Source: a virus
Taxonomy: Duplodnaviria; Caudoviricetes
DNA length: 64,000 nt
Direction: 5' to 3' (one strand)
Virus record (IMG/VR): IMGVR_UViG_3300025018_000001
In this document: positions 3,851-39,936 of the stretch, piece by piece
How positions within the stretch are numbered: the stretch's first letter is position 1
How the letters are laid out: every line of letters starts with the position of its first letter
Notes under the pieces: model-generated
The model's input: only the letters and a program-made list of their open reading frames with translations
The model's database searches: none
Told to the model about the DNA's origin: nothing
Program-made: the position numbers and the translations under genes

Positions 3851-3953
3851 TATTTGTACTAAGTGGTTTATGTTTCATAGCCATATAATGGGCCGGGACT
3901 CTCATTAACACTGCTGAACACTTTGATAAACTATTAAATATGAACCACTTATT

Positions 3954-4187
3954 ATGAATATTAAAAAATTAGATCTACATGGTATTAGACATGCAGATGT
4001 TAAGCAACTAGTTATACACTTCATTGAAGATAACTGGGGGTCAGAGGAAGATTTTGAAATAGTTACAGGACATAGTGCTAACATGAAGAGTATAGTTCTT
4101 AATGTACTAGATGAATACAAACTTCCATATACAGTTGGAGAAATATTCAACTCACTGGCACCTAAAATAACATTTTGGATGAAATAA
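3954..4187 (+). CDS. stand-alone Smr domain protein
   Basis: LDLHG...IVTGHS motif. Confidence 0.75.
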   Translation: MNIKKLDLHGIRHADVKQLVIHFIEDNWGSEEDFEIVTGHSANMKSIVLNVLDEYKLPYTVGEIFNSLAPKITFWMK

Positions 4188-4307
4188 TGAAAATAAAAGA
4201 TGTATGTTACACATGTGGTTATTTTGACCCAGACCTTGGTAAAGGAAAACGTTATAAATGTTTTACAGATAAGTGTCCAGTTAAAACGTTAGGGTCAGCC
4301 AAAGTAA

Positions 4308-4592
4308 GTGCTTTACTACGGGAGCACAAAAAGAATGCCAAAAAATAATTATATAGTATACGATTGGCTAGAAGTAAGAGATGCTACTGATTCTTTGTAC
4401 AAAAGATTATTTAATGTAAAAATAGATAATTTTGTTAAAGATGTCTGTAGCAATGGGTTGCCACATGCAATGACCTCCGTATTAGCTGCAGCTTTTGTAC
4501 ATGGTTTAATCAAAGAAGATGCAGATGTTGATAAAGTTATTAATGCTTATTTACAGTTAGAAGATGTGGGATTTATCGGTGTGAAAGAGTAA
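4308..4592 (+). CDS. hypothetical protein
   Basis: ORF track. Confidence 0.5.
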   Translation: MLYYGSTKRMPKNNYIVYDWLEVRDATDSLYKRLFNVKIDNFVKDVCSNGLPHAMTSVLAAAFVHGLIKEDADVDKVINAYLQLEDVGFIGVKE

Positions 4593-4706
4593 AGATTTGT
4601 TGTGGTTAAAGATTATTTGTGCAGCTTGTGGCTGGGTTTTGTGGTCATTAATTAACTAACCTTACTAACTTACACTTAAAAGAGGTGACGTCATGTAACA
4701 TTTTAC

Positions 4707-4735
4707 TTGCATAATTAATAGAAATAGATTATAAT
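4707..4735 (+). promoter_or_regulatory. sigma70-type promoter upstream of the RNA cluster
   Basis: TTGCAT-17 nt-TATAAT. Confidence 0.7.
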
Positions 4736-4778
4736 AGAGGATATAAATGATAGTTAGAAGTAGTAGATAGTTTTAAAT

Positions 4779-4860
4779 TTCGTATTACAGGTAGTGTTAA
4801 ACATGGTTACTTCAATTGGTGAAAAATACACCTTGTTTGTTAGTTCTCCTGTAATACGAG
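4779..4860 (+). ncRNA. free-standing Y-RNA-like module RNA (F0)
   Basis: 12-bp terminal stem TCGTATTACAGG/CCTGTAATACGA; 22-nt strand TAGTGTT-AAACATGGT-TACTTC; partner ACCTTGTTT-GTTAGTTCT; small hairpin TTCA-ATTGG-TGAA. Confidence 0.7.
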
Positions 4861-4863
4861 TTC

Positions 4864-4947
4864 GCGGGGGTGGTGGAATAGGTAGACACAAGGGACTTAA
4901 AATCCCTCGGCTGCAATGCCATGAGAGTTCAAGTCTCTCCCTCCGCA
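4864..4947 (+). tRNA. trnL: tRNA-Leu(TAA)
   Basis: cloverleaf with long variable arm; AGGGA-CTTAAAA-TCCCT. Confidence 0.92.
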
Positions 4948-4960
4948 TACAATTAATAAT

Positions 4961-5033
4961 GCCGGTGTAGCTCAGTTGGAAGAGCGCCTCCCTTGTAAGG
5001 AGGATGTCACGGGTTCGATTCCTGTTACCGGCT
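4961..5033 (+). tRNA. trnT: tRNA-Thr(TGT)
   Basis: canonical cloverleaf; CCTCC-CTTGTAA-GGAGG. Confidence 0.93.
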
Positions 5034-5054
5034 CAGTATATAAAGGTGAATTCA

Positions 5055-5267
5055 ATGGGTGTTTTGAGTTGTGATAGACCTGGTTGCGATAACATAATGT
5101 GTGATAGGTATTCAGGTAAACATGGTTATTTATGTTGGGAATGTTTTAATGAATTGGTTGCTAAAAAAATACCTGTAAGCGAGTTCATGCGTACAATAAG
5201 AGCAGAAGAAGATGAGAATCCTTATACTGAAGAATTTTATAATGAAATTTTTCCAATACGAAATTAA
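5055..5267 (+). CDS. Cys-rich hypothetical protein
   Basis: ATG at 5055 (track start overlaps the tRNA); CDRPGC..CD..CWEC. Confidence 0.6.
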   Translation: MGVLSCDRPGCDNIMCDRYSGKHGYLCWECFNELVAKKIPVSEFMRTIRAEEDENPYTEEFYNEIFPIRN

Positions 5268-5270
5268 TTA

Positions 5271-5356
5271 CTGGGTGTAGCTCAGTCCGGTAGAGTACGT
5301 GCCTTGGACGCACGGAGTCGTTGGTTCGAATCCTACCTTAGGAGCAATATACCCAT
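5271..5356 (+). pseudogene. tRNA-Pro(TGG)-like element with displaced 3' acceptor strand
   Basis: D arm, anticodon arm CGTGC-CTTGGAC-GCACG and T loop present; acceptor partner TACCCAT lies 13 nt after the T arm. Confidence 0.6.
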
Positions 5357-5398
5357 AACAATAATAACAATAAGTGTATTTAAACAACAGGAGTTACC

Positions 5399-5995
5399 AT
5401 GTTTAGAATTGGTTTGGAGTTAGAAGAATTTTGTGTCAATGGAGAAAAAGAAGTTATCTTAATACCGAAAGAGTCAAATATACCACATGATGGTTGTGGC
5501 TGGCTCATCGAATACAGAAGTGATGCAAGTAAAGATATTGTTGATGCCGTGTTTAGTTTACGTGCACATGAGTATAAAACAATTGAAACGCTAAAGAAAT
5601 TTAATGTATCCGGCGCTAGAATACCTGTAATGAAACCAAATAAAACTGTACGTATGGCTGCAAGAAAACGGTTCATTAAAGGCCTTGTACAATTTAACAA
5701 CATTTATGGTCATCAGTGTCATAAGAATACTCTAGCTGAAGCAGTTGCTGCTATACATATTTCTGTAACCTTTAGTGTTGAAGGTAAACATGGTAGTATA
5801 AATAAAGTATGGGACTTTCCTGATTTTATACGTCATATGGATAAAAAATTTGCTGAAGAGATATCAGCTGCGAAAAGACGTCCAGGTTTTTATGAAATTA
5901 AAAGTGACGGTAGAGTAGAGTATAGATCTTTACCAAATAATGTTGATTTAACAAAACTGATGTATGAAGTAAATGCATATAAGTTTAAATATTAA
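5399..5995 (+). CDS. putative amidoligase / glutamine-synthetase-fold (COOH-NH2 ligase-like) protein
   Basis: IGLELE..DG.G.LIEYRS..HIS..R.PG.YE.K..G.VEYRSL pattern. Confidence 0.55.
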   Translation: MFRIGLELEEFCVNGEKEVILIPKESNIPHDGCGWLIEYRSDASKDIVDAVFSLRAHEYKTIETLKKFNVSGARIPVMKPNKTVRMAARKRFIKGLVQFNNIYGHQCHKNTLAEAVAAIHISVTFSVEGKHGSINKVWDFPDFIRHMDKKFAEEISAAKRRPGFYEIKSDGRVEYRSLPNNVDLTKLMYEVNAYKFKY

Positions 5996-6004
5996 AAGTT
6001 GTAA

Positions 6005-6139
6005 TGCTATTTAGTGTAACGGCAAGCATGCTAAAATCTCCTTATCTGTTAGTTCCCTTACGTAAAAGTAAGTGGTGTAAGATATGGTTACTTCATATCA
6101 TAAATGAGAAGACTGGTTCGACTCCAGAAATAGCTACCA
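6005..6139 (+). ncRNA. tRNA-Met(CAT)-like RNA with inserted Y-like module (element A)
   Basis: acceptor GCTATT/AATAGC + encoded CCA, D arm, T arm; ~60-nt insert 5' of TTCAT-ATCATAA-ATGAG. Confidence 0.75.
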
Positions 6140-6156
6140 AAAATTAAAATAAGGAT

Positions 6157-6304
6157 TTGATCTGTAGCTCAGTTGGCTAGAGCAGCTGTTTAAAAAAGCC
6201 TGTTTTTGTTTGTTCCTCCTTTCTCCTCCTTCGTTGTGGATGGTGTAGAAAACAGATACTTCATATGGCACAGCGGGTCGTCAGTTCGAGTCTGACCAGA
6301 TCAA
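6157..6304 (+). ncRNA. tRNA-like RNA (His-like loop remnant) with Y-like module in the anticodon loop (element B)
   Basis: TGATCTG/CAGATCA acceptor, GCTC/GAGC D stem, GCTGT/ACAGC anticodon stem enclosing ~80 nt, GTCAG-TTCGAGT-CTGAC T arm. Confidence 0.75.
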
Positions 6305-6314
6305 CAATAAAGTT

Positions 6315-6416
6315 TAAAAACATACCAGATACTAGGGTGCGGTTGGTTTCGAAAGCCAATGAATCTAGTAGAGAGCGGCGGAAAATACAGCGAGATGAGT
6401 TCGAGGTATGTTTTTA
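6315..6416 (+). ncRNA. candidate small structured RNA between elements B and C
   Basis: 12-bp perfect closing stem TAAAAACATACC/GGTATGTTTTTA; inner TACTAG/CTAGTA and TTGGTT/AGCCAA helices; GC-rich relative to flanks. Confidence 0.45.
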
Positions 6417-6429
6417 TTTAATATGTATA

Positions 6430-6563
6430 GCGGATGTAGCTCAGCTGGGAGAGCGCCTTCATCATAGACACTGTATTAGCTTATTCCCTATTTTAAATAG
6501 TGGTGTATAACACAGATACTTCAACCAAGAAGGAAGTCGATAGTTCAAGCCTATCCATCCGCG
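6430..6563 (+). ncRNA. tRNA-like RNA (Gly-like) with Y-like module in the anticodon loop (element C)
   Basis: GCGGATG/CATCCGC acceptor, D arm, CCTTC/GAAGG stem enclosing ~68 nt, GATAG-TTCAAGC-CTATC T arm. Confidence 0.75.
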
Positions 6564-6583
6564 ACTTTAAAAGGAAATATTAT

Positions 6584-6754
6584 ATGAGATACGATGAAAA
6601 TTTAACGAAAGAAGCTGTACATGAGTGGGCTATTAAACATTTTAAAGGGCCTATAGAAGTGTATGCATTTAGAAAAACTTTTGTAGCAGTATGCAAAGAA
6701 GAAGTTGTAAATGTCCACTGTGATACTGGTTCAGTTGAAGTGGAAGATAGATGA
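6584..6754 (+). CDS. small hypothetical protein
   Basis: ATG at 6584 after AAGGA; track start lies inside element C. Confidence 0.5.
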   Translation: MRYDENLTKEAVHEWAIKHFKGPIEVYAFRKTFVAVCKEEVVNVHCDTGSVEVEDR

Positions 6755-6759
6755 TATAT

Positions 6760-6832
6760 TGCGGGTTAGAGAAACGGCCATCTCGCTAGGCTCATATCCT
6801 GGAAACAACCGGTTCAACTCCGGTACCCGCTA
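6760..6832 (+). tRNA. trnM: tRNA-Met(CAT), initiator-like
   Basis: cloverleaf; 1:72 mismatch; CTAGG-CTCATAT-CCTGG. Confidence 0.85.
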
Positions 6833-6835
6833 AAT

Positions 6836-6926
6836 TTAAAACTTGAATGGTGAATAGTATGGTTACTTCTATAGACTCTTAATCTAACCAAAAACAACCT
6901 TACTAGTATGTTCCTTCAAGTTTTAA
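6836..6926 (+). ncRNA. free-standing Y-like module RNA carrying a Lys(CTT) anticodon stem-loop (F1)
   Basis: 12-bp terminal stem TTAAAACTTGAA/TTCAAGTTTTAA; TGGTGAA-TAGTATGGT-TACTTC; TAGA-CTCTTAA-TCTA; AACCTTACTA-GTATGTTCC. Confidence 0.75.
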
Positions 6927-6953
6927 TACTTGCTGATGATGTAGTTGATTTGT

Positions 6954-7027
6954 AACTAGGGTGGTGAATAGAACAGTTACTTCACTGTAAATGAAAAAAC
7001 GACTGTTCTAGTCTGTTCCCTCTAATT
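6954..7027 (+). ncRNA. free-standing Y-like module RNA carrying a Tyr(GTA) anticodon stem-loop (F2)
   Basis: TGGTGAA-TAGAACAGT-TACTTC; TTCA-CTGTAAA-TGAA; 10-bp helix TAGAACAGTT/GACTGTTCTA; GTCTGTTCC; ends ~20 nt before the ro60 start. Confidence 0.75.
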
Positions 7028-7048
7028 CGTGTTAAAGGAGAAAACACA

Positions 7049-8455
7049 ATGGCAAAGTTAAACAAAGTACCCCAGTCCCTTAGAACTCATAATGGTGCAG
7101 TAGCTAAACACATCTCCCCTGAAAACATGCTTAGACGTTCTATTATGTCTTGCTTGCTTTGGGAAAAAGAGTACTACGAAGATGGTGTTACTATCGCACA
7201 ACGAATCGAAAAATTAGTACCACTAGTTGACCCAATGGTTGTTGCAGACTTGGCGATACTTGCTCGTACTAATATGAACCTCAGGCATGTACCACTGTTA
7301 CTGGTAAACACCATGCTAAAGTTCCCTGAACACAAGAAATATGCACGAGAAGTAATAGGTAAAGTTGTTAATCGTCCTGATGAACTTGGCGAACTTCTTA
7401 CTATGTACTTTGGTGGCGGAACCAAGAATAAACCATTGGCTAACTCTTTAAAGAAGGGTCTTGCTGATGCGTTTTGTAAATTCAATGAGTACCAGTTAGC
7501 TAAGTACAACAGGGAAGAAGCAATAAAACTCCGTGATGTACTGTTCCTGACTCATGCAAAACCAGTAGACAACACTCAGGCAGTGTTGTGGAAAAAGCTT
7601 ATCGGTGGCTTCTGTAAAAATTGTGGTGAAAGTCACTATAGCAAAGATACAAAACGAGTAGAGCCTAAAACAGAGGCTTGTTCACAGTATGAAGAGCTTA
7701 CGTTGGCTACACCTGACACTTGGGAAGTCGCTTTATCTTCTGGTGGAAACAAGCGTGAACACTGGACAAGACTACTTAAAGAAGGAAAGCTTGGTGCACT
7801 GGCACTGCTTCGTAACTTACGTAATATGCTTACTGCCGGTATTGATAAACAACAAATAGCAGAAGCTTTTACAAAGACTGACCTTAGTAAAGTTCTACCT
7901 TACAGGTACATAGCTGCTGCAAAGTATGCTCCAGGTTTGGAAAATATACTGGAAGATGGTATGTTCAAGAGCTTGAAAAATGCACCTCGTATGGAAGGAC
8001 GCACAACGCTGCTTATAGATGTTTCTGGTAGCATGGATTGGGCCTTATCTGCTAAGTCTGATCTTAAGAGATTGGATGCTGCTTGTGGTTTAGCTATGCT
8101 ACTTCGTGAAATCTGTGAAGACGTAGATATATTCACATTCAGTACCAGGCTTGTGCAGGTACCACCAAGAAGAGGGTTTGCTTTAAAAGAAGCCATAGAG
8201 CGTAGTCAAGGTCATAGCTCAACTTACCTTGGTAGGTCTTTAAAAGAGTTACAAAGTAAAACAAAATGTGATAGACTTATTGTTATCACAGATGAACAAT
8301 CGAACGACGCCGTACCAGATCCAAAAGGTACTGGCTATATGATAAACGTAGCTTCTGCCAGAAATGGTGTTGGTTACGGTGCTTGGACTCATGTAGATGG
8401 TTTTAGTGAGTCTGTAGTACGTTGGATTCAGGAATTGGAAAATGATAAAAAATAA
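7049..8455 (+). CDS. rsr: Ro60/Rsr RNA-binding protein (TROVE + vWA)
   Basis: TROVE motifs (R.P.LLL, FNEYQLAKY, LRDVLFLTH, TWE..LS, ALLRNLRN, LPYRY) and vWA MIDAS DVSGSM...IVITDEQ. Confidence 0.93.
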   Translation: MAKLNKVPQSLRTHNGAVAKHISPENMLRRSIMSCLLWEKEYYEDGVTIAQRIEKLVPLVDPMVVADLAILARTNMNLRHVPLLLVNTMLKFPEHKKYAREVIGKVVNRPDELGELLTMYFGGGTKNKPLANSLKKGLADAFCKFNEYQLAKYNREEAIKLRDVLFLTHAKPVDNTQAVLWKKLIGGFCKNCGESHYSKDTKRVEPKTEACSQYEELTLATPDTWEVALSSGGNKREHWTRLLKEGKLGALALLRNLRNMLTAGIDKQQIAEAFTKTDLSKVLPYRYIAAAKYAPGLENILEDGMFKSLKNAPRMEGRTTLLIDVSGSMDWALSAKSDLKRLDAACGLAMLLREICEDVDIFTFSTRLVQVPPRRGFALKEAIERSQGHSSTYLGRSLKELQSKTKCDRLIVITDEQSNDAVPDPKGTGYMINVASARNGVGYGAWTHVDGFSESVVRWIQELENDKK

Positions 8456-8477
8456 GTTATGGTAGATGTGTAATACT

Positions 8478-8515
8478 AGTAGCTAGAAACTGGCAATTTT
8501 TAGCTACTTTAATTT
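8478..8515 (+). terminator. intrinsic terminator after ro60
   Basis: AGTAGCTA/TAGCTACT hairpin followed by T-rich tract. Confidence 0.6.
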
Positions 8516-8532
8516 TTGTGTAGTCAACATGG

Positions 8533-8561
8533 TTGACAATCATTGATTATGTGTGTATTAT
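8533..8561 (+). promoter_or_regulatory. sigma70-type promoter with inverted repeat over -35
   Basis: TTGACA-17-TATTAT; GTCAAC-ATG-GTTGAC palindrome 8523-8537. Confidence 0.65.
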
Positions 8562-8572
8562 GTATTTACTAT

Positions 8573-8712
8573 TTTAGTATTTCTGCTGGCAACAGATTTA
8601 CTAAGCTTTTTAAGACTGGAAAACAATATAACAAGATGGCCGTCCCTTTTATCGAATAGCTGCATCGCGCTGCGAAAGATCCGGGACCTCCTAGTTTGAG
8701 TTCGAAAGTTTA
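8573..8712 (+). ncRNA. candidate structured leader or small RNA
   Basis: hairpins TTAGTA/TACTAA, GTCCC/GGGAC, CCTAGTT/AACTAGG directly after the promoter. Confidence 0.35.
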
Positions 8713-8783
8713 AGCAACTAGGTTGAATGGGTAGGGGTGGGGATTTTTTATCATTTATTATTAATTTAAATATTTGGGGGTGT

Positions 8784-9110
8784 ATGGAAAGAGATCTTTG
8801 TGACTTGATGGCGAACGGTGGTGATGACTTTGGTAGCCAGTATGACTATAATTCAGATGAATGTACTTCAAGAGAATTTGGTAGTCGAGATCTAGGTACA
8901 GCAATGACTTTTGCAGAGATGCTCGCAGAAGAAGAATCATTGTCCGGTTTAATGGAGTCAATGGATGCACACGACCCAGAAGAATTGTTGGAAGCTATGG
9001 AAATAGCCCAAGACAAAGATAAAGTAACACGTGTTAGTCTTAAGAGTAGGAATACGGATGCTCCTGCTTTTGAACAATACGTTTATGCAAAATGTGGACT
9101 AGTTAGATAA
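8784..9110 (+). CDS. acidic hypothetical protein
   Basis: likely ATG 8784 after GGGGG SD. Confidence 0.6.
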   Translation: MERDLCDLMANGGDDFGSQYDYNSDECTSREFGSRDLGTAMTFAEMLAEEESLSGLMESMDAHDPEELLEAMEIAQDKDKVTRVSLKSRNTDAPAFEQYVYAKCGLVR

Positions 9111-9295
9111 TGCCTATTTACAATTACGAGTGTTCTGTCTGTAAAAAAAAGTATGAATCTATACAACCGATGGACACTAAAACAATACAATGTACTTGTG
9201 GTGAAACAGCTAAAAAAGTACCGTCTCTAACTAATTTTCAACTAAAAGGTGGAGGTTGGGCAAAAGATGGATACAGTAGCGGTGGTAAAAAGTAG
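9110..9295 (+). CDS. FmdB-family zinc ribbon protein
   Basis: MPIYNYECSVC...C.CG..A.K...F.LKG.GW..DGY. Confidence 0.85.
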   Translation: MPIYNYECSVCKKKYESIQPMDTKTIQCTCGETAKKVPSLTNFQLKGGGWAKDGYSSGGKK

Positions 9296-9584
9296 TTGCG
9301 AATTTGAAAATAATATGTTAAACTTACTTATCGGTAAGAGGTATTCAATAACACTATTCGCACATGACACGCCAATGGTTGGTACAATTAAATCAAAAGA
9401 AGCTAAGGATAAATCAAATCATACTTATTGGTTTTCTTGGTGGGATGAAGCACGAAAACAAAATGTAGGACATTACATATTTGATAGAGGTTATGCTAAT
9501 ACCAAAAGAACAATTGTATATAATCAATATAGTATACGTACATGTAAAGAAGTATGTCCTAACATTGACCCTAAAAAAGATTAA
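9249..9584 (+). CDS. hypothetical protein
   Basis: ORF; true start probably downstream of 9295. Confidence 0.5.
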   Translation: MEVGQKMDTVAVVKSSCEFENNMLNLLIGKRYSITLFAHDTPMVGTIKSKEAKDKSNHTYWFSWWDEARKQNVGHYIFDRGYANTKRTIVYNQYSIRTCKEVCPNIDPKKD

Positions 9585-9590
9585 GGAGAC

Positions 9591-10115
9591 GTGATGTTGC
9601 TCGTCGAAAAAGCAATGCTATTTGCTATTGAAGCACATAAAGGTACATTTAGAAAATTTGATGGTACAGCTTATATAAAACATCCTTTTTCTGTCATGGG
9701 GATTATGACTGAATACTCGGATGACCCTGCTGTACTAGCGGCTTGTCTACTACATGACACAGTCGAAGATATTGATGATATTACATTAGAAACAATGCAC
9801 GATACATTTGGTGAACGAGTGGCGAGTAACGTTTTTTATGTTACAGAAAAAGCTACTAAAGCTGACGGTAGTCGTAGAGTACGAAAAGAAATTGACCGTA
9901 TTCATTACAGTAAAGGTACAGTAGATTCACAAAATATAAAAGTAGCGGATATGTTGGATAATATTCCTGGTATTGTATTATGCGACCCTAAATTTGCACC
10001 TATATACTTAGAAGAAAAAAGACAGCTTTTATGGAGCTTAACAAAAGCAGTTCCAGATATAAAAGCTAAAGCAGAAAGACTAATAAACCAGATGTACTTA
10101 ATTCTAGGTAATTAG
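9591..10115 (+). CDS. HD-domain hydrolase, Mesh1/SpoT (p)ppGpp-hydrolase-like
   Basis: A..FA..AH.G..RK..G..YI.HP..V...LLHDTVED...KVADMLDN. Confidence 0.85.
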   Translation: MMLLVEKAMLFAIEAHKGTFRKFDGTAYIKHPFSVMGIMTEYSDDPAVLAACLLHDTVEDIDDITLETMHDTFGERVASNVFYVTEKATKADGSRRVRKEIDRIHYSKGTVDSQNIKVADMLDNIPGIVLCDPKFAPIYLEEKRQLLWSLTKAVPDIKAKAERLINQMYLILGN

Positions 10116-10121
10116 TTTATA

Positions 10122-10257
10122 GGCCTGTTAGCTCAATCGGTTAGAGCATTAAGCTAAACCTTATTAGCTAGTTCCCTATTTAATTATAGCGGTGTATAAT
10201 ATGGTTACTTCTCTTATGATAAAAGAAAGATGGTAGGTTCGAATCCTCCACAGGCCA
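10122..10257 (+). ncRNA. tRNA-Ile(GAT)-like RNA with inserted Y-like module (element D)
   Basis: GGCCTGT/ACAGGCC acceptor, D arm, T arm; insert with CGGTGTA-TAATATGGT-TACTTC before TCTT-ATGATAA-AAGA. Confidence 0.75.
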
Positions 10258-10476
10258 AATTAAATTATTAACAAATGAATAAGGTCTCTGGTTGAGTAAT
10301 TCTAGATAGGGTGGTTCAATTCCGCCCGCCTTGAAAAATGTTGGGGTTGATGTGTTAGTCCTCCATGTATAGCTCCTAGGTAAGCTTACAGAAGCACTCA
10401 AGTGTAAACTGCAACTCTTCGTGGTTATCAGACTAAACCACGTTAACTTAATAGGGAGATTCCAAATAAGAAAAAC

Positions 10477-11199
10477 ATGAAAGAACCAAATGAGATAGAT
10501 ATTCTCGACTTGAATTATCCTTTACTTGTGAAATTTAAGGAGAAGTGTCCTGGTACTTTTGCACATAGCAAGAAATTAGCAGAAGTATTAGAAAAAATAG
10601 GTACTGCGCTTGGTCTTGATTCCAAAGTATTAAAAACTATAGGTCTGTATCATGATGTAGGTAAAATGGTAACACCTGTTTTATATTCTGAGAATCAACC
10701 AATAGATTTTAATCCACATGATAACCTGGAGCCTTGGATTTCATTTGCTCTAGTAGCTGGTCATGTAGCGCACTCAGTACAAATACTACTAAACGACCCT
10801 AACTTTGATGATGAGTTGGTAAAAGTATGCTCTCAACATCATGGCACAACTCTAGCTTTGTGCTTCTTTAAGAAAAGTGGTAGTGAAAATGAAGAGGAGT
10901 ATAGATACACAACACTTCGTCCACAATCTTTTGAAGCCGCATTACTAATGATTTGTGACCATCTAGAAGCACGTATTCGTTCTGAAATGAATAGCGGTAG
11001 GATAACAGATAAAGAGGGTATTGAAAATATAGTAGAGATAGTTTTCAATAGTTTAGTAGACGATGGTCAATTCGATGATGTAGCCGTACCGAGTTTTAAA
11101 ATATTACGGACACTGAAAAGTACACTGAAATTAGAATTTTCAGAGTTGTTCGAAGACCATAAGCGTATAGACTACGCACAAGATACAGTAAAGAAATAA
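10477..11199 (+). CDS. stand-alone HDIG-type HD domain protein (PgpH/YqfF-like catalytic domain)
   Basis: PGTFAHS...YHDVGK...ENQ...NPHD.L.P..S...HV...QHHGT...YRY...P.S.EAALLMICD. Confidence 0.8.
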   Translation: MKEPNEIDILDLNYPLLVKFKEKCPGTFAHSKKLAEVLEKIGTALGLDSKVLKTIGLYHDVGKMVTPVLYSENQPIDFNPHDNLEPWISFALVAGHVAHSVQILLNDPNFDDELVKVCSQHHGTTLALCFFKKSGSENEEEYRYTTLRPQSFEAALLMICDHLEARIRSEMNSGRITDKEGIENIVEIVFNSLVDDGQFDDVAVPSFKILRTLKSTLKLEFSELFEDHKRIDYAQDTVKK

Positions 11200-12017: not shown

Positions 12018-12396
12018 TATGAAAGTCAAGGATGCAAAAGCATTATTAGATACCTTCGATGATGAAGCTGAATTAGTATTACTAGGAGAAGACTCAACAA
12101 CCTATGATATTAAAAACTGCGACACTGCTAAAGACTCCAAACTGGTTTGGTTTGAAATAAAAGAAACCGGAATGTGTGATGGCTGTTAAGTAAATATTAA
12201 TGTAACTAGTAATTTTATAACTCGTATTAACGTATTATTATAGTATGAGTTAGCGCAACTTAGACCAGTGAATTGAGATACGGCGTTCAGCAGTAACTGG
12301 TTACTTCAATGTAGATACGCCGTTGGTCCTAACTTGTACTATAGTAGTATAATTATTACTAATCCTTAGATGCTATGATGCGATAGGAGAAGTGAA

Positions 12397-13290
12397 ATGA
12401 AAGAACAATCCGCAAATGTAGGCGTTGTAATTGGTCGTTTCCACGTAGACGATCTCCACGAAGGTCACCTAAATCTACTTTCTACAGTAGAGAACTCACA
12501 CAGTAGACTTATTATTTTTGTAGGTCTATCTCACAACAAATGTACTTATAATAACCCTTTAGATTTTGAATCAAGGCGGTCTATGTTACAAGCACATTAT
12601 CCAAAAGCAACTATTCTTTATATTAGAGACGTACATGACGATGTGATCTGGTCCAAAGATCTCGATAATAAAATATTGAACTTAATAGGGCCTAATCAAA
12701 CCGTATGTCTTTATGGTAGTAGGGATTCTTTTATTCCGTATTATCATGGAAAATTTCCAGTTAAAGAACTTGTACAAGAAACTTATTTCTCAGGCACCGA
12801 AGTACGCAAACAAGTAGCTATTAGATCCAATTCTACTAGAGACTTTAGAGCAGGTGCTATATGGGCGTTAGGTAATCAGTATGCATCCCCTAATTTTACT
12901 ATTGATGTTGCTATATTCAATGATGATTTTACTCGTGTCCTTCTCGGTCGCAAAATAAGAGAATCAAAATATAGATTCATTGGCGGCTTTATTCAAAACT
13001 CAGAGAAGATATCTGATGCCGTTGCAAGGGAAGCGTTGGAAGAAACTCATCTCGTACTTAATAATATTACTTACATTGATAGTTTCCCGTCTACTGACTG
13101 GCGTTACAAAGGTGAAAGAGATAAGATTACTACTATACTCCATACTGCTACAATTAAATCAGGCACACCTGAACCAGATGATGATATACATGAGCTTCGT
13201 TGGTTTGACTTCAACGGTGAAGTAATGGAACATCTCGTCCCAGAGCATCTTGAAATGATGAATCAGTTGTTACTCAAATCACGGAGTTAA
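12397..13290 (+). CDS. nadM: bifunctional NMN adenylyltransferase / ADP-ribose pyrophosphatase (NadM-Nudix)
   Basis: GRF...HEGH, NPLDFE.R, GSRDSF, SGTEVR; Nudix box GG...E....AVAREALEET. Confidence 0.92.
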   Translation: MKEQSANVGVVIGRFHVDDLHEGHLNLLSTVENSHSRLIIFVGLSHNKCTYNNPLDFESRRSMLQAHYPKATILYIRDVHDDVIWSKDLDNKILNLIGPNQTVCLYGSRDSFIPYYHGKFPVKELVQETYFSGTEVRKQVAIRSNSTRDFRAGAIWALGNQYASPNFTIDVAIFNDDFTRVLLGRKIRESKYRFIGGFIQNSEKISDAVAREALEETHLVLNNITYIDSFPSTDWRYKGERDKITTILHTATIKSGTPEPDDDIHELRWFDFNGEVMEHLVPEHLEMMNQLLLKSRS

Positions 13291-13298
13291 TTATAATA

Positions 13299-13496
13299 AT
13301 GATAAGAAAAACTGTATGCTTACCTATAAAAGTACCAGAAGGTAAGTACTGTTGGGAATATAACGTAGCTGGTACCTGTGATTACCATGATAATGAAGGT
13401 GGTACATCTGTATGTACATTACACTTTGATGTTAAAGAAACAAAGAAAGGCGTTATTAAGGACCCACTTTGCGCCTCATTAACATTGGTGAAATGA
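13299..13496 (+). CDS. Cys-rich hypothetical protein
   Basis: short ORF. Confidence 0.5.
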   Translation: MIRKTVCLPIKVPEGKYCWEYNVAGTCDYHDNEGGTSVCTLHFDVKETKKGVIKDPLCASLTLVK

Positions 13497-13559
13497 CTGG
13501 CAAAAGACATATATGGTCATGAAATAACAGCAGATAGTGCCACAGAACTTGAAGGGCTT

Positions 13560-13772
13560 ATGTGTTGGAATAATCATAGGGTATTCAGCCTTATAAAAGA
13601 TAGACATGGTGTATTCTGGTCTGGATGGGATATAAACAGACATTATCCACACACATGGGAGCATCATGCTGACAATCTTGGTAGCGACCCTGAAGAAGCT
13701 AAAAGGTTACACAAAATAGAAACAGATAGAATACGAGCTAAGATTGATGAAGATCCATCAAGATGCTGGTAA
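13560..13772 (+). CDS. hypothetical protein
   Basis: short ORF; start uncertain. Confidence 0.45.
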   Translation: MCWNNHRVFSLIKDRHGVFWSGWDINRHYPHTWEHHADNLGSDPEEAKRLHKIETDRIRAKIDEDPSRCW

Positions 13773-13802
13773 TAGAGTAGTATAATATAAATCCTAGATG
13801 CG

Positions 13803-15170
13803 TTGATGCAAGGGAGAAACAACATGAAAAGAAGAAGCTTAGTATTTAAAACGGATTCCTATAAATCAAGTCACTGGTTACAGTTCCCTGAGAATAGAGG
13901 AAGTTACTACTACATAGAATCACGTGGTGGTGCAGAAGAAGTACTCTTCTTTGGTCTACAAGCAGTCATCAAAAGAATACTTTCAAAAATGCCTACAAAG
14001 AAAGAAGTTAAAAAAGCTGCTAAATTCTGGGCAAACCACGGAGTTGCTTTCAATAAGAAAGGTTGGATGAAACTTGTTAAACTTGGTTATTATCCGATTG
14101 AAATTCACGCTGTGGAAGAAGGTAAATTAATAAAAACAAAAGAAGTACAAGTAACAATTGAGTCTACTGATGACCGATTTGGTTGGCTTCCTGGTTGGAT
14201 TGAGACGACGTTGCTCCAGCTATGGTATCCTACTACAGTTGCGACGAAGCAATTCGAGTGTAAGAAAGTTATACTTGAGTACTTAAAGAAAACTGGTACC
14301 CCTGAAGATGCACCATTCAAACTACACTCATTTGGTTATAGAGGTGTTAGTTCTGAGGAGTCTGCTGGCATAGGTGGATCTGCTGAGTTACTTACATCCA
14401 TGGGTACTGACACTGTTGCTGGTATACTTGAAGCACAAGACATGTACAATACTAACGCTATGCTTGGCTTTAGTATAAATGCAGCGGAACACAGTACTAT
14501 TACTGCCTGGGGAAGAGAGTTTGAGCGTGATGCATACGAGAATATGCTCAATCAATTTCTTAAGCCTGGGGCTATTGTAGCAGTTGTGTCTGATAGCTAT
14601 GACCTAAGTAATGCTGTACTGAAGTATTGGGGTGGTGAGTTTAAAGAACGTATAATTCAATCAGGTGGTACATTGGTAGTGCGGCCTGATTCCGGTGAGC
14701 CATCTGAGATAGTACTTAGAACTCTTGAACAACTTGGCGAATGCTTTGGTACTGAAGTAAATGCTAAAGGATATAAAGTTCTTCCAAGTTACGTAAGAGT
14801 GATCCAAGGCGATGGCCTTAATGGTGCTGACGATATACGTAAAGTATTAGAAGTTATAACAGAGGCCGGTTGGTCCGCTGACAACGTAGCATTTGGTATG
14901 GGTGGTGGATCATTACAACAAGTCAACCGTGACACCTACAAATATGCTATGAAGATGTCTGCCATTTTCAAAAAGAACAAGGATGGCCAATTTGCTTGGT
15001 CTGATGTATTTAAAGAACCTGCTGATGCACCGTGGAAAAATAGTAAGAAAGGTAGATTTGATAAATTAAATCTACCACTTATTTGGAAAGATGGTAAGTT
15101 TTTTAAACAGTACACATTTGAAGAAGTGCGTGCTAACGCAATGGGTGAGCTTGAACGTAAGACAAGTTAA
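13803..15170 (+). CDS. nadV: nicotinamide phosphoribosyltransferase
   Basis: TDSYK.SH, LWYP.TVAT, LH.FG.RG, AAEHS, VSDSYD, VRPDSG, IQGDG, FGMGG. Confidence 0.95.
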   Translation: MMQGRNNMKRRSLVFKTDSYKSSHWLQFPENRGSYYYIESRGGAEEVLFFGLQAVIKRILSKMPTKKEVKKAAKFWANHGVAFNKKGWMKLVKLGYYPIEIHAVEEGKLIKTKEVQVTIESTDDRFGWLPGWIETTLLQLWYPTTVATKQFECKKVILEYLKKTGTPEDAPFKLHSFGYRGVSSEESAGIGGSAELLTSMGTDTVAGILEAQDMYNTNAMLGFSINAAEHSTITAWGREFERDAYENMLNQFLKPGAIVAVVSDSYDLSNAVLKYWGGEFKERIIQSGGTLVVRPDSGEPSEIVLRTLEQLGECFGTEVNAKGYKVLPSYVRVIQGDGLNGADDIRKVLEVITEAGWSADNVAFGMGGGSLQQVNRDTYKYAMKMSAIFKKNKDGQFAWSDVFKEPADAPWKNSKKGRFDKLNLPLIWKDGKFFKQYTFEEVRANAMGELERKTS

Positions 15171-15319
15171 CTCAGAGGGTGCAGAAGGACTATAGTAACT
15201 GACAAGATTATATGAATTCGAGTGCCTGATGGTGTTGCCGTGGAGGTTATGTATTATGGGAGTCTGTCAAACTCTTTAACTGAGGATAACGGTAACACCA
15301 CATTTTTTAAGGAGACTAT

Positions 15320-15526
15320 ATGGGATTTGCAACATTGCCAGAAAAGAAAAAGATAAAACCACGATATAAGAATACGCTTGTATGTCAAGAGTGTGGTACT
15401 GAATTTGGAGCCAACGTTACGTTTGTGCGAGGTATATCAGAGATACGTGGAACAGACTTTGAAAGATTTACACCACTAACTAAGATAGAAAAAGGCACAT
15501 GTCCCATGTGTAGTAATAATGTATAA
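15320..15526 (+). CDS. zinc-ribbon hypothetical protein
   Basis: CQECG...CPMC; AGGAG SD. Confidence 0.6.
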   Translation: MGFATLPEKKKIKPRYKNTLVCQECGTEFGANVTFVRGISEIRGTDFERFTPLTKIEKGTCPMCSNNV

Positions 15527-15716
15527 GCGTAGCGGTGGGACTACAGACATAGAAGTAGTAAATCATATTGACTATATTGTTGTTGAGCCAAAAGTTAACC
15601 CTAAAAAGAAAATAAAAACATCTATGTATAAAGAGTCTAAAATAGCCCGTCACACAACAGTTGGTGGAAAGGGTATCGTAGGTAGGATATACAATAAAAA
15701 AGGTAAGAAGCTATGA
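15519..15716 (+). CDS. basic hypothetical protein
   Basis: translationally coupled ORF. Confidence 0.5.
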   Translation: MYKRSGGTTDIEVVNHIDYIVVEPKVNPKKKIKTSMYKESKIARHTTVGGKGIVGRIYNKKGKKL

Positions 15717-16162
15717 TGCAGACATTAAATTGTGATATACTACACGGCTTAAAAGCAGACCAAAAAACAGTTATACTGCACGGTTGTAATTGTTTTAATA
15801 CGATGGGTGCAGGTATTGCAAAGTATTTACGTGGTAAATTTCCAAACGTATATGCAGTAGATTGTGCAACAAAGCGTGGCGACAAGAATAAATTAGGCAC
15901 ATGTAGTAGGGCAGTAATAAGTCATAACTTACATATTCTAAATTGTTATACTCAGTACAACTACGGAAGAGAGAAGAAGCTATATGCAAATTATATAGCT
16001 ATTGATGAATGTTTTAAAAGAATTGCTGCTGATTATGACACTACTTGGGAAATACGTATGCCTAGAATAGGTTGTGGCCTTGCCGGTGGTGATTGGGAAG
16101 TAATTGGTGCTTTGGTTGTTAATAATTTTAATAAGCATAACACAAACATATATTTTAAATAG
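15713..16162 (+). CDS. macrodomain protein (ADP-ribose binding/hydrolase)
   Basis: ILHGCNCFNTMGAGIA...MPRIGCGLAGG.W. Confidence 0.9.
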   Translation: MMQTLNCDILHGLKADQKTVILHGCNCFNTMGAGIAKYLRGKFPNVYAVDCATKRGDKNKLGTCSRAVISHNLHILNCYTQYNYGREKKLYANYIAIDECFKRIAADYDTTWEIRMPRIGCGLAGGDWEVIGALVVNNFNKHNTNIYFK

Positions 16163-18718: not shown

Positions 18719-19342
18719 ATGTTTAAATACCCAAGGACGTATCATTTACCATGGTCTCCTGGCGTAACAAAAGATGATAAGATAATAAAATCTACAGAGC
18801 ACTTTGTAGGTAAAAGAGTAATAGTAACAGAAAAATTAGATGGTGAATGTACTACAATTAAAAGAGGTCGTATACATGCACGCTCTATGGATTCTAAAGA
18901 TCATATATCAAGACACTGGATTAAAAATCAGTATGGTTATTTAACTAACGTTTTGAATACTGCTACTAGGGTATGTGGTGAGAATGTATTTGCTGAACAT
19001 TCTATTGCTTATCAAAATCTTATCAGTTTTTTTTACGCCTTCTCAGTATGGAATTTTTCAACTTGTTTATCATGGGATACTACACTTGAAGAATTAAAAT
19101 TTTTAAACATAGCACATGTACCAGTTATATATGATGGTATTTGGGACGAAGACCTTATAAAAAATATACCTGTTACCCCTACTGAAAAAGGTGATATGGA
19201 GGGGTATGTTGTAAGAATGGCTAGTTCTTTTGATATAATAGATTTTGACTATAATATTGCTAAGTATGTTAGAGCCGGGCATGTACAAACAGATGAGCAC
19301 TGGTTAAGTAAACCTGTTGTAAAAAATAAATTAAAGATATAA
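18719..19342 (+). CDS. ATP-dependent RNA ligase (Rnl2-like)
   Basis: KYPRT.HLPWS, TEKLDGE, CGEN, EGYVVR, KYVR. Confidence 0.88.
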   Translation: MFKYPRTYHLPWSPGVTKDDKIIKSTEHFVGKRVIVTEKLDGECTTIKRGRIHARSMDSKDHISRHWIKNQYGYLTNVLNTATRVCGENVFAEHSIAYQNLISFFYAFSVWNFSTCLSWDTTLEELKFLNIAHVPVIYDGIWDEDLIKNIPVTPTEKGDMEGYVVRMASSFDIIDFDYNIAKYVRAGHVQTDEHWLSKPVVKNKLKI

Positions 19343-19796: not shown

Positions 19797-20942
19797 ATGA
19801 TGGAAAGGCAATTAGCATCTATCCAAAAAATCGTAGATTTACAACCTATCGCTGGCGCGGACAGAATTGAAGTTGCCTTTGTATTAGGTTGGCAATGTGT
19901 TGTAAAGAAAGGTGAATTTAATGTGGGTGACTTATGTGTATATTTTGAAATAGATTCTCAATTACCACCACATAAAGCCTTTGATTTTATGGCAGACCGT
20001 AAGTATAGAGTACGTACTATTAAGCTACGAAAACAAATTGCGCAGGGATTGGCATTACCAATAAGTGTACTAACTCATTTTAGTAGTAAGCTTCTTAATA
20101 AATACAAAGAAGGTGATGATGTTACTACTTTAATAGGCGTTACTAAATATGAACCACGTCCTGATAATGTAGATCCAAGTAGTAAAAAGAAACTAAAGCC
20201 AGTAGTTAATTATTTGATGGACTACTTCTGGTTCAGGAAGCTGTACAATATTATTATGCCAGGTAAGACTAAAGGTAACTTTCCTGAGTTTATTAATAAG
20301 ACTGACGAGACACGTATACAAAGTTGTCCTATACTTCTGAGAAAGAATATTGGTAAGTCCTTCTACTTTACTGAAAAACTTGATGGCAGTTCGGCATCTT
20401 ACTTCTTTAATACTGCTTTAGTTGGCAAAAAGCTAGGCTTATTCAATAAAGATAAAGGTAATGGCTTTGGTGTTTGCTCTAGAAATCTAAGGCTTGTTAC
20501 ACCGGATAATAGATACTGGTGGAAGTATGCTAAAGACCATGAGCTTGAAGATAAGATAACATGTATGTCAAAGTACTTAGGATTCAGTATTGCTGTACAA
20601 GGAGAATTAATAGGTCCAGGTATTCAGAAGAATAAGTACTGTCTTGATGACTTAGACTTCTATTGTTTCAATATCTTTAATATAGATGATAAAGTATATG
20701 TGTCTATAGAAAAGAAAGAAGAGGTATGTAAACTATTTGGTATAAAAACTGTACCGCGTGATGATACTGTAGTTGTTCTTACTGAAGATCATGACGTAAA
20801 CTTTTTTGTTAATCTTTCTAAGAGAAAGAGTAAATTAAACAAGAAAGTTACGGCTGAGGGTATTGTTGGTAGATGCACTGATGATGATACTATAAGTTTT
20901 AAAGTTATAAATCCCGAATGGTTATTGAAGAACGATGAGTAA
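19797..20942 (+). CDS. RNA ligase, DRB0094 family
   Basis: N-terminal LASIQ.I..L.PI.GADRIE..V.GWQCVV; KTDETRIQ; TEKLDGSS; QGELIGPGIQKN; EGIV; SFKVIN. Confidence 0.9.
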   Translation: MMERQLASIQKIVDLQPIAGADRIEVAFVLGWQCVVKKGEFNVGDLCVYFEIDSQLPPHKAFDFMADRKYRVRTIKLRKQIAQGLALPISVLTHFSSKLLNKYKEGDDVTTLIGVTKYEPRPDNVDPSSKKKLKPVVNYLMDYFWFRKLYNIIMPGKTKGNFPEFINKTDETRIQSCPILLRKNIGKSFYFTEKLDGSSASYFFNTALVGKKLGLFNKDKGNGFGVCSRNLRLVTPDNRYWWKYAKDHELEDKITCMSKYLGFSIAVQGELIGPGIQKNKYCLDDLDFYCFNIFNIDDKVYVSIEKKEEVCKLFGIKTVPRDDTVVVLTEDHDVNFFVNLSKRKSKLNKKVTAEGIVGRCTDDDTISFKVINPEWLLKNDE

Positions 20943-39864: not shown

Positions 39865-39936
39865 TGCCTCCAGAGGGAATCGAACCCCCGTCACACTATT
39901 TTAGAGGTAGTTGTTCCACCATTGAACTATGAAGGC
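39865..39936 (-). tRNA. amber suppressor tRNA (anticodon CTA)
   Basis: GCCTTCA/TGGAGGC acceptor, GTTC/GAAC D stem, loop CT-CTA-AA, GGGGG-TTCGATT-CCCTC T arm; 31:39 mismatch. Confidence 0.8.

Follow-up and report, generated by a model that had tools for sequence, protein, structure and literature searches.

Does a gene that has the complete frame of a tRNA and, in addition, a 60- to 80-nt insert in the anticodon arm encode a tRNA precursor in need of splicing or a whole RNA of another kind? The question is posed by four elements, termed A to D, in IMG/VR virus record IMGVR_UViG_3300025018_000001 (Duplodnaviria; Caudoviricetes), of which a stretch of 64,000 nt, here called the window, was analysed. 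The window is AT-rich phage DNA (aquifer and cold-spring metagenomes) with numerous tRNA genes. A first-pass annotation had left two explanations side by side, namely unspliced chimeras of a tRNA and a Y RNA, or inserts removed by proteins with the flanks joined by a phage RNA ligase. The former has gained support because the insert is a module shared with stand-alone Y-like RNAs, is linked to the gene for the protein Ro60, and belongs to RNAs related to known Y RNAs by circular permutation. By contrast, an intron class joined by phage ligases found no support, given the missing bulge-helix-bulge motifs, the inconsistent splice positions and the conservation of the inserts. From structure, covariation, Ro60 linkage and the permutation relationship we consider it highly probable that A to D are unspliced Y RNAs of the YrlA type, that is, whole tRNA–Y RNA chimeras, in native tRNA topology. 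Since the helix that would partner Ro60 is carried in the anticodon arm, whole chimeras are more likely than tRNAs with a new intron.

Results

Four elements with a complete tRNA frame

A (6005..6139), B (6158..6304), C (6430..6563) and D (10122..10257), all on the plus strand, lie where the first-pass annotation had placed them except that B starts at 6158 and not at 6157. In each of these tRNA-topology Y RNAs the chain starts with the 5' strand of a 7-bp acceptor stem and U8-A9, runs through the D arm, the module and a T arm whose loop reads TTCRANY, and returns along the 3' strand of the acceptor stem to a discriminator base. The acceptor, D and T arms described earlier for all four are thus present, with two irregularities in A: a U1.U72 mismatch in the acceptor stem (6005-6011/6129-6135) and a non-canonical D arm (6014-6029; GUGU/GCAU). 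The T arm of A occupies positions 6112-6128, and A73-CCA is encoded at 6136-6139. A and B are arranged in tandem with 18 nt between them.

The elements fall into two sub-types. In A, D and a family of copies from crAss-like phages, a hairpin with a 7-nt loop follows directly after UUACUUC, which locates the module between the D stem and an anticodon-like arm. Specifically, the module of A (6040-6094) leads into a hairpin at 6092-6108 with the loop ATCATAA (CAU), and that of D (10159-10211) into a hairpin at 10211-10227 with the loop ATGATAA (GAU), followed by the T arm at 10233-10249; the insert of both is therefore 5' of the hairpin, as had been proposed. In the second sub-type, comprising B, C and a copy on contig L090, the anticodon stem of the tRNA itself closes around the module and no anticodon loop is left. 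The enclosing stems noted previously in B and C are GCTGT/ACAGC (6185-6189/6270-6274, module 6200-6262) and CCTTC/GAAGG (6456-6460/6529-6533, module 6471-6522). The 'His-like' and 'Gly-like' remnants described with them could not be supported as anticodon loops; C instead carries on its 5' side ATCATAG, which resembles a CAU loop.

With 55-80 nt separating the D arm from the anticodon region, A to D depart from the canonical tRNA layout. ARAGORN without its intron option found none of the four; with this option all were called, A only at a relaxed score threshold, and the assigned anticodons (AAA, CCC, ATT and TAA) were arbitrary. Only D is scored by the Rfam tRNA model RF00005 (41.3 bits, with a 75-nt insertion), and at gathering score Rfam returned only tRNA and tmRNA for the window and 15 related loci. 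Gene finders thus either overlook these genes or report intron-bearing tRNAs with false anticodons. A to D are not recent copies of the ordinary tRNAs of the phage, which include two tRNA-Met(CAU) as well as tRNA-Ile(GAU).

The insert is a module that also occurs alone

The consensus module of A to D opens with P1, a helix of 8 bp in which a U.U mismatch is conserved. GUNNGUU follows, then a CC/GG step from which one pyrimidine bulges, and then the P2 hairpin. On the 3' side UG(U/A)A leads back into P1, and (U/A)UACUUC comes last. In A (6040..6094, plus strand) the order is P1 5' strand (6040-6047), GUUAGUU, CC, P2 hairpin, bulged U, GG, UGUA, P1 3' strand (6080-6087) and UUACUUC. The pattern GGTGNA-N9-TACTTC has six exact matches in the window where 1.25 are expected. 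Two of them are stand-alone RNAs, and a third stand-alone RNA represents a seventh, divergent copy, which brings the window to four tRNA-wired and three stand-alone modules.

The stand-alone RNAs Y0 (4781..4858), Y1 (6836..6926) and Y2 (6957..7024), all on the plus strand, use the same strands as the inserts of A to D in another order: they end in P2, and P1 is closed apically. Y0 has its ends in P2 (CGTATTACAGG/CCTGTAATACG) and a short apical region that closes P1; it has an ortholog in L002, one of the two contigs most closely related to the window. Y1, with an apical hairpin at 6872-6886 (loop CTCTTAA), has an ortholog in the other, L001, and Y2, with an apical hairpin at 6981-6995 (loop CTGTAAA), in both. 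Y1 and Y2 lie directly upstream of the Ro60 gene, the distance between the end of Y2 and the start codon being 25 nt.

Complete modules in other viral contigs were identified by pattern scans followed by a parser that demands pairing of both P1 and P2; when the flanks were shuffled, 1-2 of 289 controls passed it. L154, L169, L177, L181 and L216 were discarded as false positives of the parser because a tRNA frame was missing.

A possible eighth, divergent Y-like RNA is found at 12250-12345, with a stem UUAGACC/GGUCCUAA, a bulged C, an AGUGAA strand, and GGUUACUUCA in the apical loop. Its folding z-score is only -0.8 and no relative of this candidate was found.

Circular permutation relates the elements to YrlA

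Copies of the module elsewhere are mostly stand-alone and belong to two size classes. In the long class the P1 strands flank a short hairpin, a T arm, a loop-closed acceptor-like stem and a D arm, in this order, which is the published architecture of YrlA (PMC4201824; bioRxiv 10.1101/312249). A nhmmer profile of 134 positions was built from 50 unique classical long copies (module, T arm, loop-closed acceptor, D arm). Only when the tRNA-wired RNAs were permuted in silico by cutting in the P2 loop and joining the acceptor ends did nearly all of the 23 unique copies align to profile positions ~4-131 of 134 with 39-62 bits; for six copies of the crAss family the alignment covered only positions ~4/5-105 or ~4-119. 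The native sequences match the same profile as two swapped halves, and shuffled controls gave no match to it.

The profile also matches, with 28-72 bits, five tandem copies just upstream of the Ro60 gene in Caulobacter phage CcrColossus. Three of these match Rfam YrlA (RF02553) at 42, 30 and 30 bits (E 9e-8 to 3e-4), significantly but short of the gathering score of 69. A 'tRNA-Gln' annotated at 2131-2198 in this phage (L407; tandem copies within 1958-2910) falls within one of the copies and may belong to a Y RNA instead of being a free tRNA.

By position, GGUGNA and UUAC of the module appear to correspond to the published YrlA motifs GNCGAA, a presumed contact of Ro60, and YUAY, which precedes the variable region (PMC4201824). 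Compared with GNCGAAN0-1G/YUAY, the window has GGUG(U/A)A and (U/A)UAC, that is, U in place of the expected C, while the CcrColossus copies read GGCGUAG. A to D share with YrlA a tRNA-like domain with D and T arms and elbow nucleotides; the permuted order with ends in the Ro60-binding stem is absent from them. Collinearity with the profile after permutation thus identifies A to D as circular permutations of YrlA-type Y RNAs in which the normal tRNA order is restored.

Linkage to the Ro60 gene

The presumed protein partner is encoded at 7049..8455 on the plus strand by a gene with TROVE and vWA domains (Pfam TROVE 1.8e-22; phrog_850 3.6e-50), and its product matches the Ro60 structures 9L5Y and 9KOP of Thermus phage phiLo (1.9e-27). 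All seven module copies share the strand of this gene and are at most 2.3 kb (upstream) or 1.8 kb (downstream) away from it. A to C are located 0.5-1.0 kb upstream and D 1.7 kb downstream, within the distance of ~4 kb on the same strand that is used to recognize YrlA-type RNAs. Among 233 viral-contig loci fetched by DNA pattern, a Ro60 gene is present in 34 of the 39 with a complete module and in two of the 194 without (Fisher 4e-33), and in these 34 loci the gene is usually no more than a few hundred bases away. A scan of 5900-7100 for promoters and terminators revealed nothing above shuffled sequences; the only clear terminator (8478-8508) lies after Ro60.

Covariation and conservation

In the closest viral-contig relatives, L001 and L002, the Ro60 proteins are 78% and 68% identical to that of the window. 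A, B and D have orthologs in L001, and A and B in L002; C has none in either. A search of INPHARED with 4700-7000 yielded only ordinary tRNA matches and no close relative. Folding-energy z-scores of single sequences are weak (-1.0 to -1.7), and the case for the structures therefore rests on covariation. The acceptor stem of B changes in a compensatory manner (TGATCTG/CAGATCA vs TACCTTG/CAAGGTA), as does the hairpin of A, for which TTCAT/ATGAG, TTCTA/TAGAG and TTCGC/GCGGG occur among the window, L001 and L002. T stems, P1 and P2 behave likewise, and compensatory changes are also seen in the acceptor and T stems of D when it is compared with its orthologs in L001 and L014. In a plain MAFFT alignment of 11 tRNA-wired copies a five-helix model paired 94.6% of cells, compared with 68% after shuffling and 39-46% with slid partners; both sides change in 23 of 31 pairs. 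Covariation supports each of the five helices, i.e. acceptor, D, P1, CC/GG plus P2, and T.

The elbow nucleotides U8, A14, G18, G53, U54, U55, C56, A58 and C61 are invariant in 15 copies. The insert of B is 96-97% identical across the window, L001 and L002, whereas its tRNA body is 64-96% identical and the T arm plus acceptor 3' strand only 64-76%, with compensatory changes. The insert of D is as conserved as the tRNA body or more so; in A, by contrast, the tRNA body is the more conserved part.

These data bear on the idea that A to D are tRNA genes disrupted by a mobile element derived from a Y RNA and now decay as functionless relics. That ARAGORN and Rfam miss or mis-score the elements and that C is without an ortholog in L001 and L002 would fit such a history. 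Decaying genes would not, however, be expected to maintain compensatory pairing in both the tRNA and the module stems among phages whose Ro60 proteins are 35-78% identical, nor to hold the elbow nucleotides U8, A14, G18, G53-U54-U55-C56, A58 and C61 invariant, and the orthologs persist in three lineages. Relics are thus already disfavoured and extremely improbable.

One feature of B stands out in this comparison. Its P2 hairpin has a pyrimidine-rich loop at 6220-6237, and these 18 nt (UUUCUCCUCCUUCGUUGU) are invariant in the three phages despite the changed acceptor and T stems of B. The loop contains CCUCC, which resembles an anti-Shine-Dalgarno sequence, and is complementary to the ribosome-binding site of Ro60 (AGGAGAAA, about 7036-7043).

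The inserts as possible introns

Alternatively, the inserts might be short tRNA introns of a new, protein-dependent class. The precursor would be marked by the module, possibly with Ro60 bound to it, a nuclease would cut on both sides, and a phage RNA ligase would join the halves to give tRNA-Met/Ile(CAU), tRNA-Ile(GAU) and others. In accordance with this model, removal of the insert from A and D can yield 5-bp stems with 7-nt loops, and in the crAss relative L386 it yields a clean GCAGT/GCTGC stem with a CTTGTAA loop. The arithmetic behind the 'perfect stems' of the first-pass annotation is correct, yet these stems are only one pair away from the local hairpins of the unspliced RNAs: U.G becomes C-G in A, and C.A becomes U-A in D. 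Moreover, once the insert of A is removed, a 9-nt linker separates its D and anticodon stems. A canonical anticodon arm can be restored in A (with this linker), D and L386, but not in C, where position 33 is an A, nor in B, L090 and most crAss copies, which are left with no canonical loop.

The implied cut sites also differ, being 26/27 in A and D, a replaced loop in B, and after position 38 in C. At 60-80 nt the inserts are, as had been recognized, too short for group I or II introns, whose catalytic core takes up ~200 nt or more. A brute-force search of the A to D junctions for a bulge-helix-bulge (two 3-nt bulges, 4-bp helix) likewise bore out the earlier impression that there is none, the frequency of such motifs being equal to that in shuffled sequences. 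No intron or ribozyme family was found by Rfam at E<=10 in 4500-11000, and no splicing-endonuclease domain among the 30 window proteins scanned. Selection on the insert is as strong as on the body in B and D, and the insert is free-standing elsewhere in the locus. Classical YrlA comprises the same two parts, module and tRNA domain, in one mature RNA, which co-precipitates with Ro60 (PMC4201824). Finally, genes for ordinary tRNA-Met(CAU) and tRNA-Ile(GAU) are already in the window.

Also cited in favour of splicing are two RNA-ligase genes on the plus strand (18719-19342 and 19797-20942; Pfam RNA_ligase 5e-26 and 1e-21, PHA02142 OB-fold domain). They lie 11-13 kb away and are context only, as nothing ties them to A to D. 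Ro60 and Y RNAs are known to pair with RNA repair (PMC7790460); the nearby ligases fit this pairing and offer no particular argument for splicing. On balance, an intron class appears very unlikely.

Recurrence in other phages

An exhaustive strict-pattern scan of IMG/VR yielded 23 unique tRNA-wired copies in three groups, namely that of the window (window, L001, L002 and L014), L090, and about 20 crAss-like contigs. On a quick, midpoint-rooted tree of Ro60 the distribution of the tRNA-wired form requires three or more changes, and each of these is embedded among lineages that have classical forms. In bacterial genomes the tRNA-wiring pattern turned up only stand-alone copies among the first 120 matches listed.

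The crAss family includes a cultured phage, crAss001 (L406, NC_049977.1). The unannotated gap of ~900 nt (3920-4824) that follows its Ro60 gene gp96 contains a stand-alone Y RNA (4017-4100), a tRNA-wired Y RNA of 144 nt (4193-4336), which the Rfam tRNA model scores at 46.6 bits when an insertion of 82 nt is allowed for, and a further copy (4448-4589) that has the acceptor stem and the T arm and lacks the D arm. As crAss001 is cultured and its Ro60 gene has been reported as early (PMC8375218), the nature of these RNAs is directly testable at the bench there.

The loop of the hairpin after UUACUUC differs even between close relatives among the crAss-like contigs L040, L386, L099, L357 and their kin, where CTTTTAA (Lys UUU), CTTGTAA (Thr UGU) and 9-nt forms are found. 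CTTGTAA recurs in classical copies of the unrelated phages L069, L013 and L019.

Further features of the locus

A structured RNA of ~100 nt lies between B and C (6315-6416; outer stem AAAAACATACC/GGTATGTTTTT, z -2.9). L001 retains it, two of its stems having changed in a compensatory manner, and Rfam gave no match to it. Upstream of A, a tRNA-like gene at 5271-5345 (loop CTTGGAC, UGG) has an unpaired acceptor stem and is covered by the Rfam tRNA model only over model positions 7-64; in L001 and L002 the corresponding site is occupied by an intact tRNA-Pro. A tRNA with the anticodon CUA (39865-39936, minus strand) is a possible amber suppressor, and TAG may be a sense codon in some genes.

D is flanked by a second pair of HD phosphohydrolase genes. 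The region between the Ro60 locus and the RNA ligases (12397-16162) contains NAD salvage genes (NMNAT-Nudix and NAMPT) and a Macro-domain gene.

Reads from two wastewater 'RNA?' runs, one small RNA source-sample run and one DNA run were mapped to the window and provided neither usable cover of A to D nor meaningful joints; a search for sequencing runs that contain the window listed no RNA run. The one read joint, from 6189 to 6270 with CTTGTAA in between, stems from the DNA run and belongs to an unrelated, ordinary tRNA-Thr-like gene with B-like arms.

Discussion

A model for tRNA-wired Y RNAs

We propose that A to D would each end in a normal acceptor stem and carry in the anticodon arm a hairpin-closed module for binding of Ro60. 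This module comprises P1, the internal loop GUNNGUU / UGNA, the CC/GG step with its bulged U, and P2. Excision from a multi-gene transcript could be accomplished by the tRNA end-processing enzymes of the host, i.e. RNase P, a 3' nuclease and the CCA-adding enzyme, and the RNAs would remain at their full length of ~130-147 nt. Bound to Ro60 via the module, they might make the tRNA body accessible to an effector that binds tRNA, and A, D and the crAss family may display the anticodon-like hairpin as well. Candidate effectors are RNA-repair or decay enzymes and host defences that cut tRNAs. A preprint reports that a host defence is countered by a Ro60-like protein of phage Bas63, and raises the possibility that certain tRNAs annotated in phages are Y RNAs (PMC11482910).

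Several points speak against this model. Binding of A to D by Ro60 is itself predicted from sequence. Rfam YrlA (RF02553) has no hit at E<=10 in 4500-11000 of the window. A and D retain complete anticodon hairpins, and D keeps the identity elements of E. coli tRNA-Ile (GAU, A37-A38, A73, C4-G69, U12-A23 and C29-G41), which would fit a real tRNA precursor as well. Weak evidence in favour of the model comes from the crAss001 homolog, for which 12 of 12 sampled words of the full-length form were present in contigs of transcriptomic runs from three studies, but this count may reflect DNA or a precursor and is compatible with a coexisting spliced form. Also in its favour, tRNA-wired and classical long forms seldom co-occur in a locus (1 of 11 against 18 of 29), in a comparison of phylogenetically non-independent, pattern-found loci; it suggests that in the phages examined the tRNA-wired form fills the role of YrlA and replaces the classical permuted RNA.

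Full-length, Ro60-bound RNAs need not be inert in tRNA metabolism. A and D might also function as tRNAs that accept an amino acid and perhaps serve the ribosome, or might report charging or cleavage of their class to Ro60. The 7-bp acceptor stems with discriminator base, the encoded CCA of A, the covarying anticodon hairpins of A and D, and their conserved CAU and GAU loops all lend themselves to this idea, as does the finding that in M. smegmatis RNase P cleaves YrlA and CCA is added to it in vivo (PMC4201824). On the other hand, an extra 55-nt arm at the junction of D and anticodon arms is not known from any decoding tRNA, B, C and L090 possess no anticodon loop, the window already has ordinary tRNAs for both anticodons, and the loop of the crAss relatives drifts between 7-nt and 9-nt forms. 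We regard a tRNA function of this kind as quite unlikely. When the scenarios that leave a working tRNA are pooled, namely Ro60-tagged tRNAs with A and D charged and active in or on translation, or removal of the handle along a bacterial or phage splicing route (Ro60-guided cutting and the phage RNA ligases) to give tRNA-Met/Ile, the verdict is still unlikely. If removal of the handle did occur, it would be a case of protein-dependent tRNA splicing, of which no earlier example is known from bacterial viruses.

Unspliced chimeras, the reading favoured here, raise a question of their own: is a Y RNA whose acceptor end is open, and in A carries an encoded CCA, processed, modified or charged in the manner of a tRNA? 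If so, Ro60 would be brought to tRNA enzymes or to host defences that cut tRNAs.

YrlA RNAs have been described as circularly permuted mimics of tRNA, and dimeric tRNA transcripts have been proposed as their origin. A natural non-permuted form in tandem, as represented by A and B, is the kind of intermediate that would yield a permuted gene by tandem duplication, and it may therefore bear on the origin of Y RNAs from tRNAs.

Comparison with known systems

YrlA-type Y RNAs are known; what is new relative to the literature is the native tRNA topology. In the papers searched, YrlA RNAs are described only as permuted with a closed acceptor stem, with the sole exception of the RNase P-cleaved, two-piece form of M. 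smegmatis, and our literature search found no one-piece Y RNA in native tRNA order and none in crAss phages.

Other RNAs combine a tRNA-like part with foreign sequence. In tmRNA, both one-piece and permuted two-piece, an acceptor and T-arm domain likewise has its lower half swapped for another functional domain, and permuted and non-permuted gene orders both exist in nature. Unlike tmRNA, A to D contain neither an mRNA-like reading frame nor pseudoknots, and their presumed partner is Ro60 and not SmpB. The intron-containing and permuted tRNA genes of archaea and algae also have extra sequence in or near the anticodon arm, and there, too, permuted and non-permuted forms coexist. In contrast to these introns, the inserts of A to D show no bulge-helix-bulge and no accompanying endonuclease gene was found; their positions are inconsistent, and they form a conserved functional module.

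Closer relatives are found among the Y RNAs themselves. YrlB, other short Y RNAs and Yrl1/Yrl2 of Thermus phage phiLo resemble Y0 to Y2 in consisting of the module and a short apical region upstream of Ro60, and Yrl1/Yrl2 are bound by the phage Ro60 in vitro (PMC12135203). This class lacks a tRNA body and is represented in the locus by the partners of A to D. YrlA (RF02553; Chen et al. 2014, PMC4201824; Wang et al. 2018, bioRxiv 10.1101/312249, PDB 6CU1) shares with A to D the same-strand Ro60 neighbour and a tRNA-like domain with D and T arms that is joined at the anticodon arm to the Ro60-binding stem. Unlike YrlA, A to D have their ends in a 7-bp acceptor stem with discriminator base, and a hairpin caps their presumed Ro60-binding stem. 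The arms follow one another as in genuine tRNAs, D before T, and A and D add an anticodon-like hairpin with a 7-nt loop. The RNase P-cleaved Y RNA of M. smegmatis likewise exposes an open 7-bp acceptor stem ending in CCA. In that RNA, however, cleavage of a permuted molecule into two pieces creates the open acceptor, whereas here it is directly encoded in a single piece.

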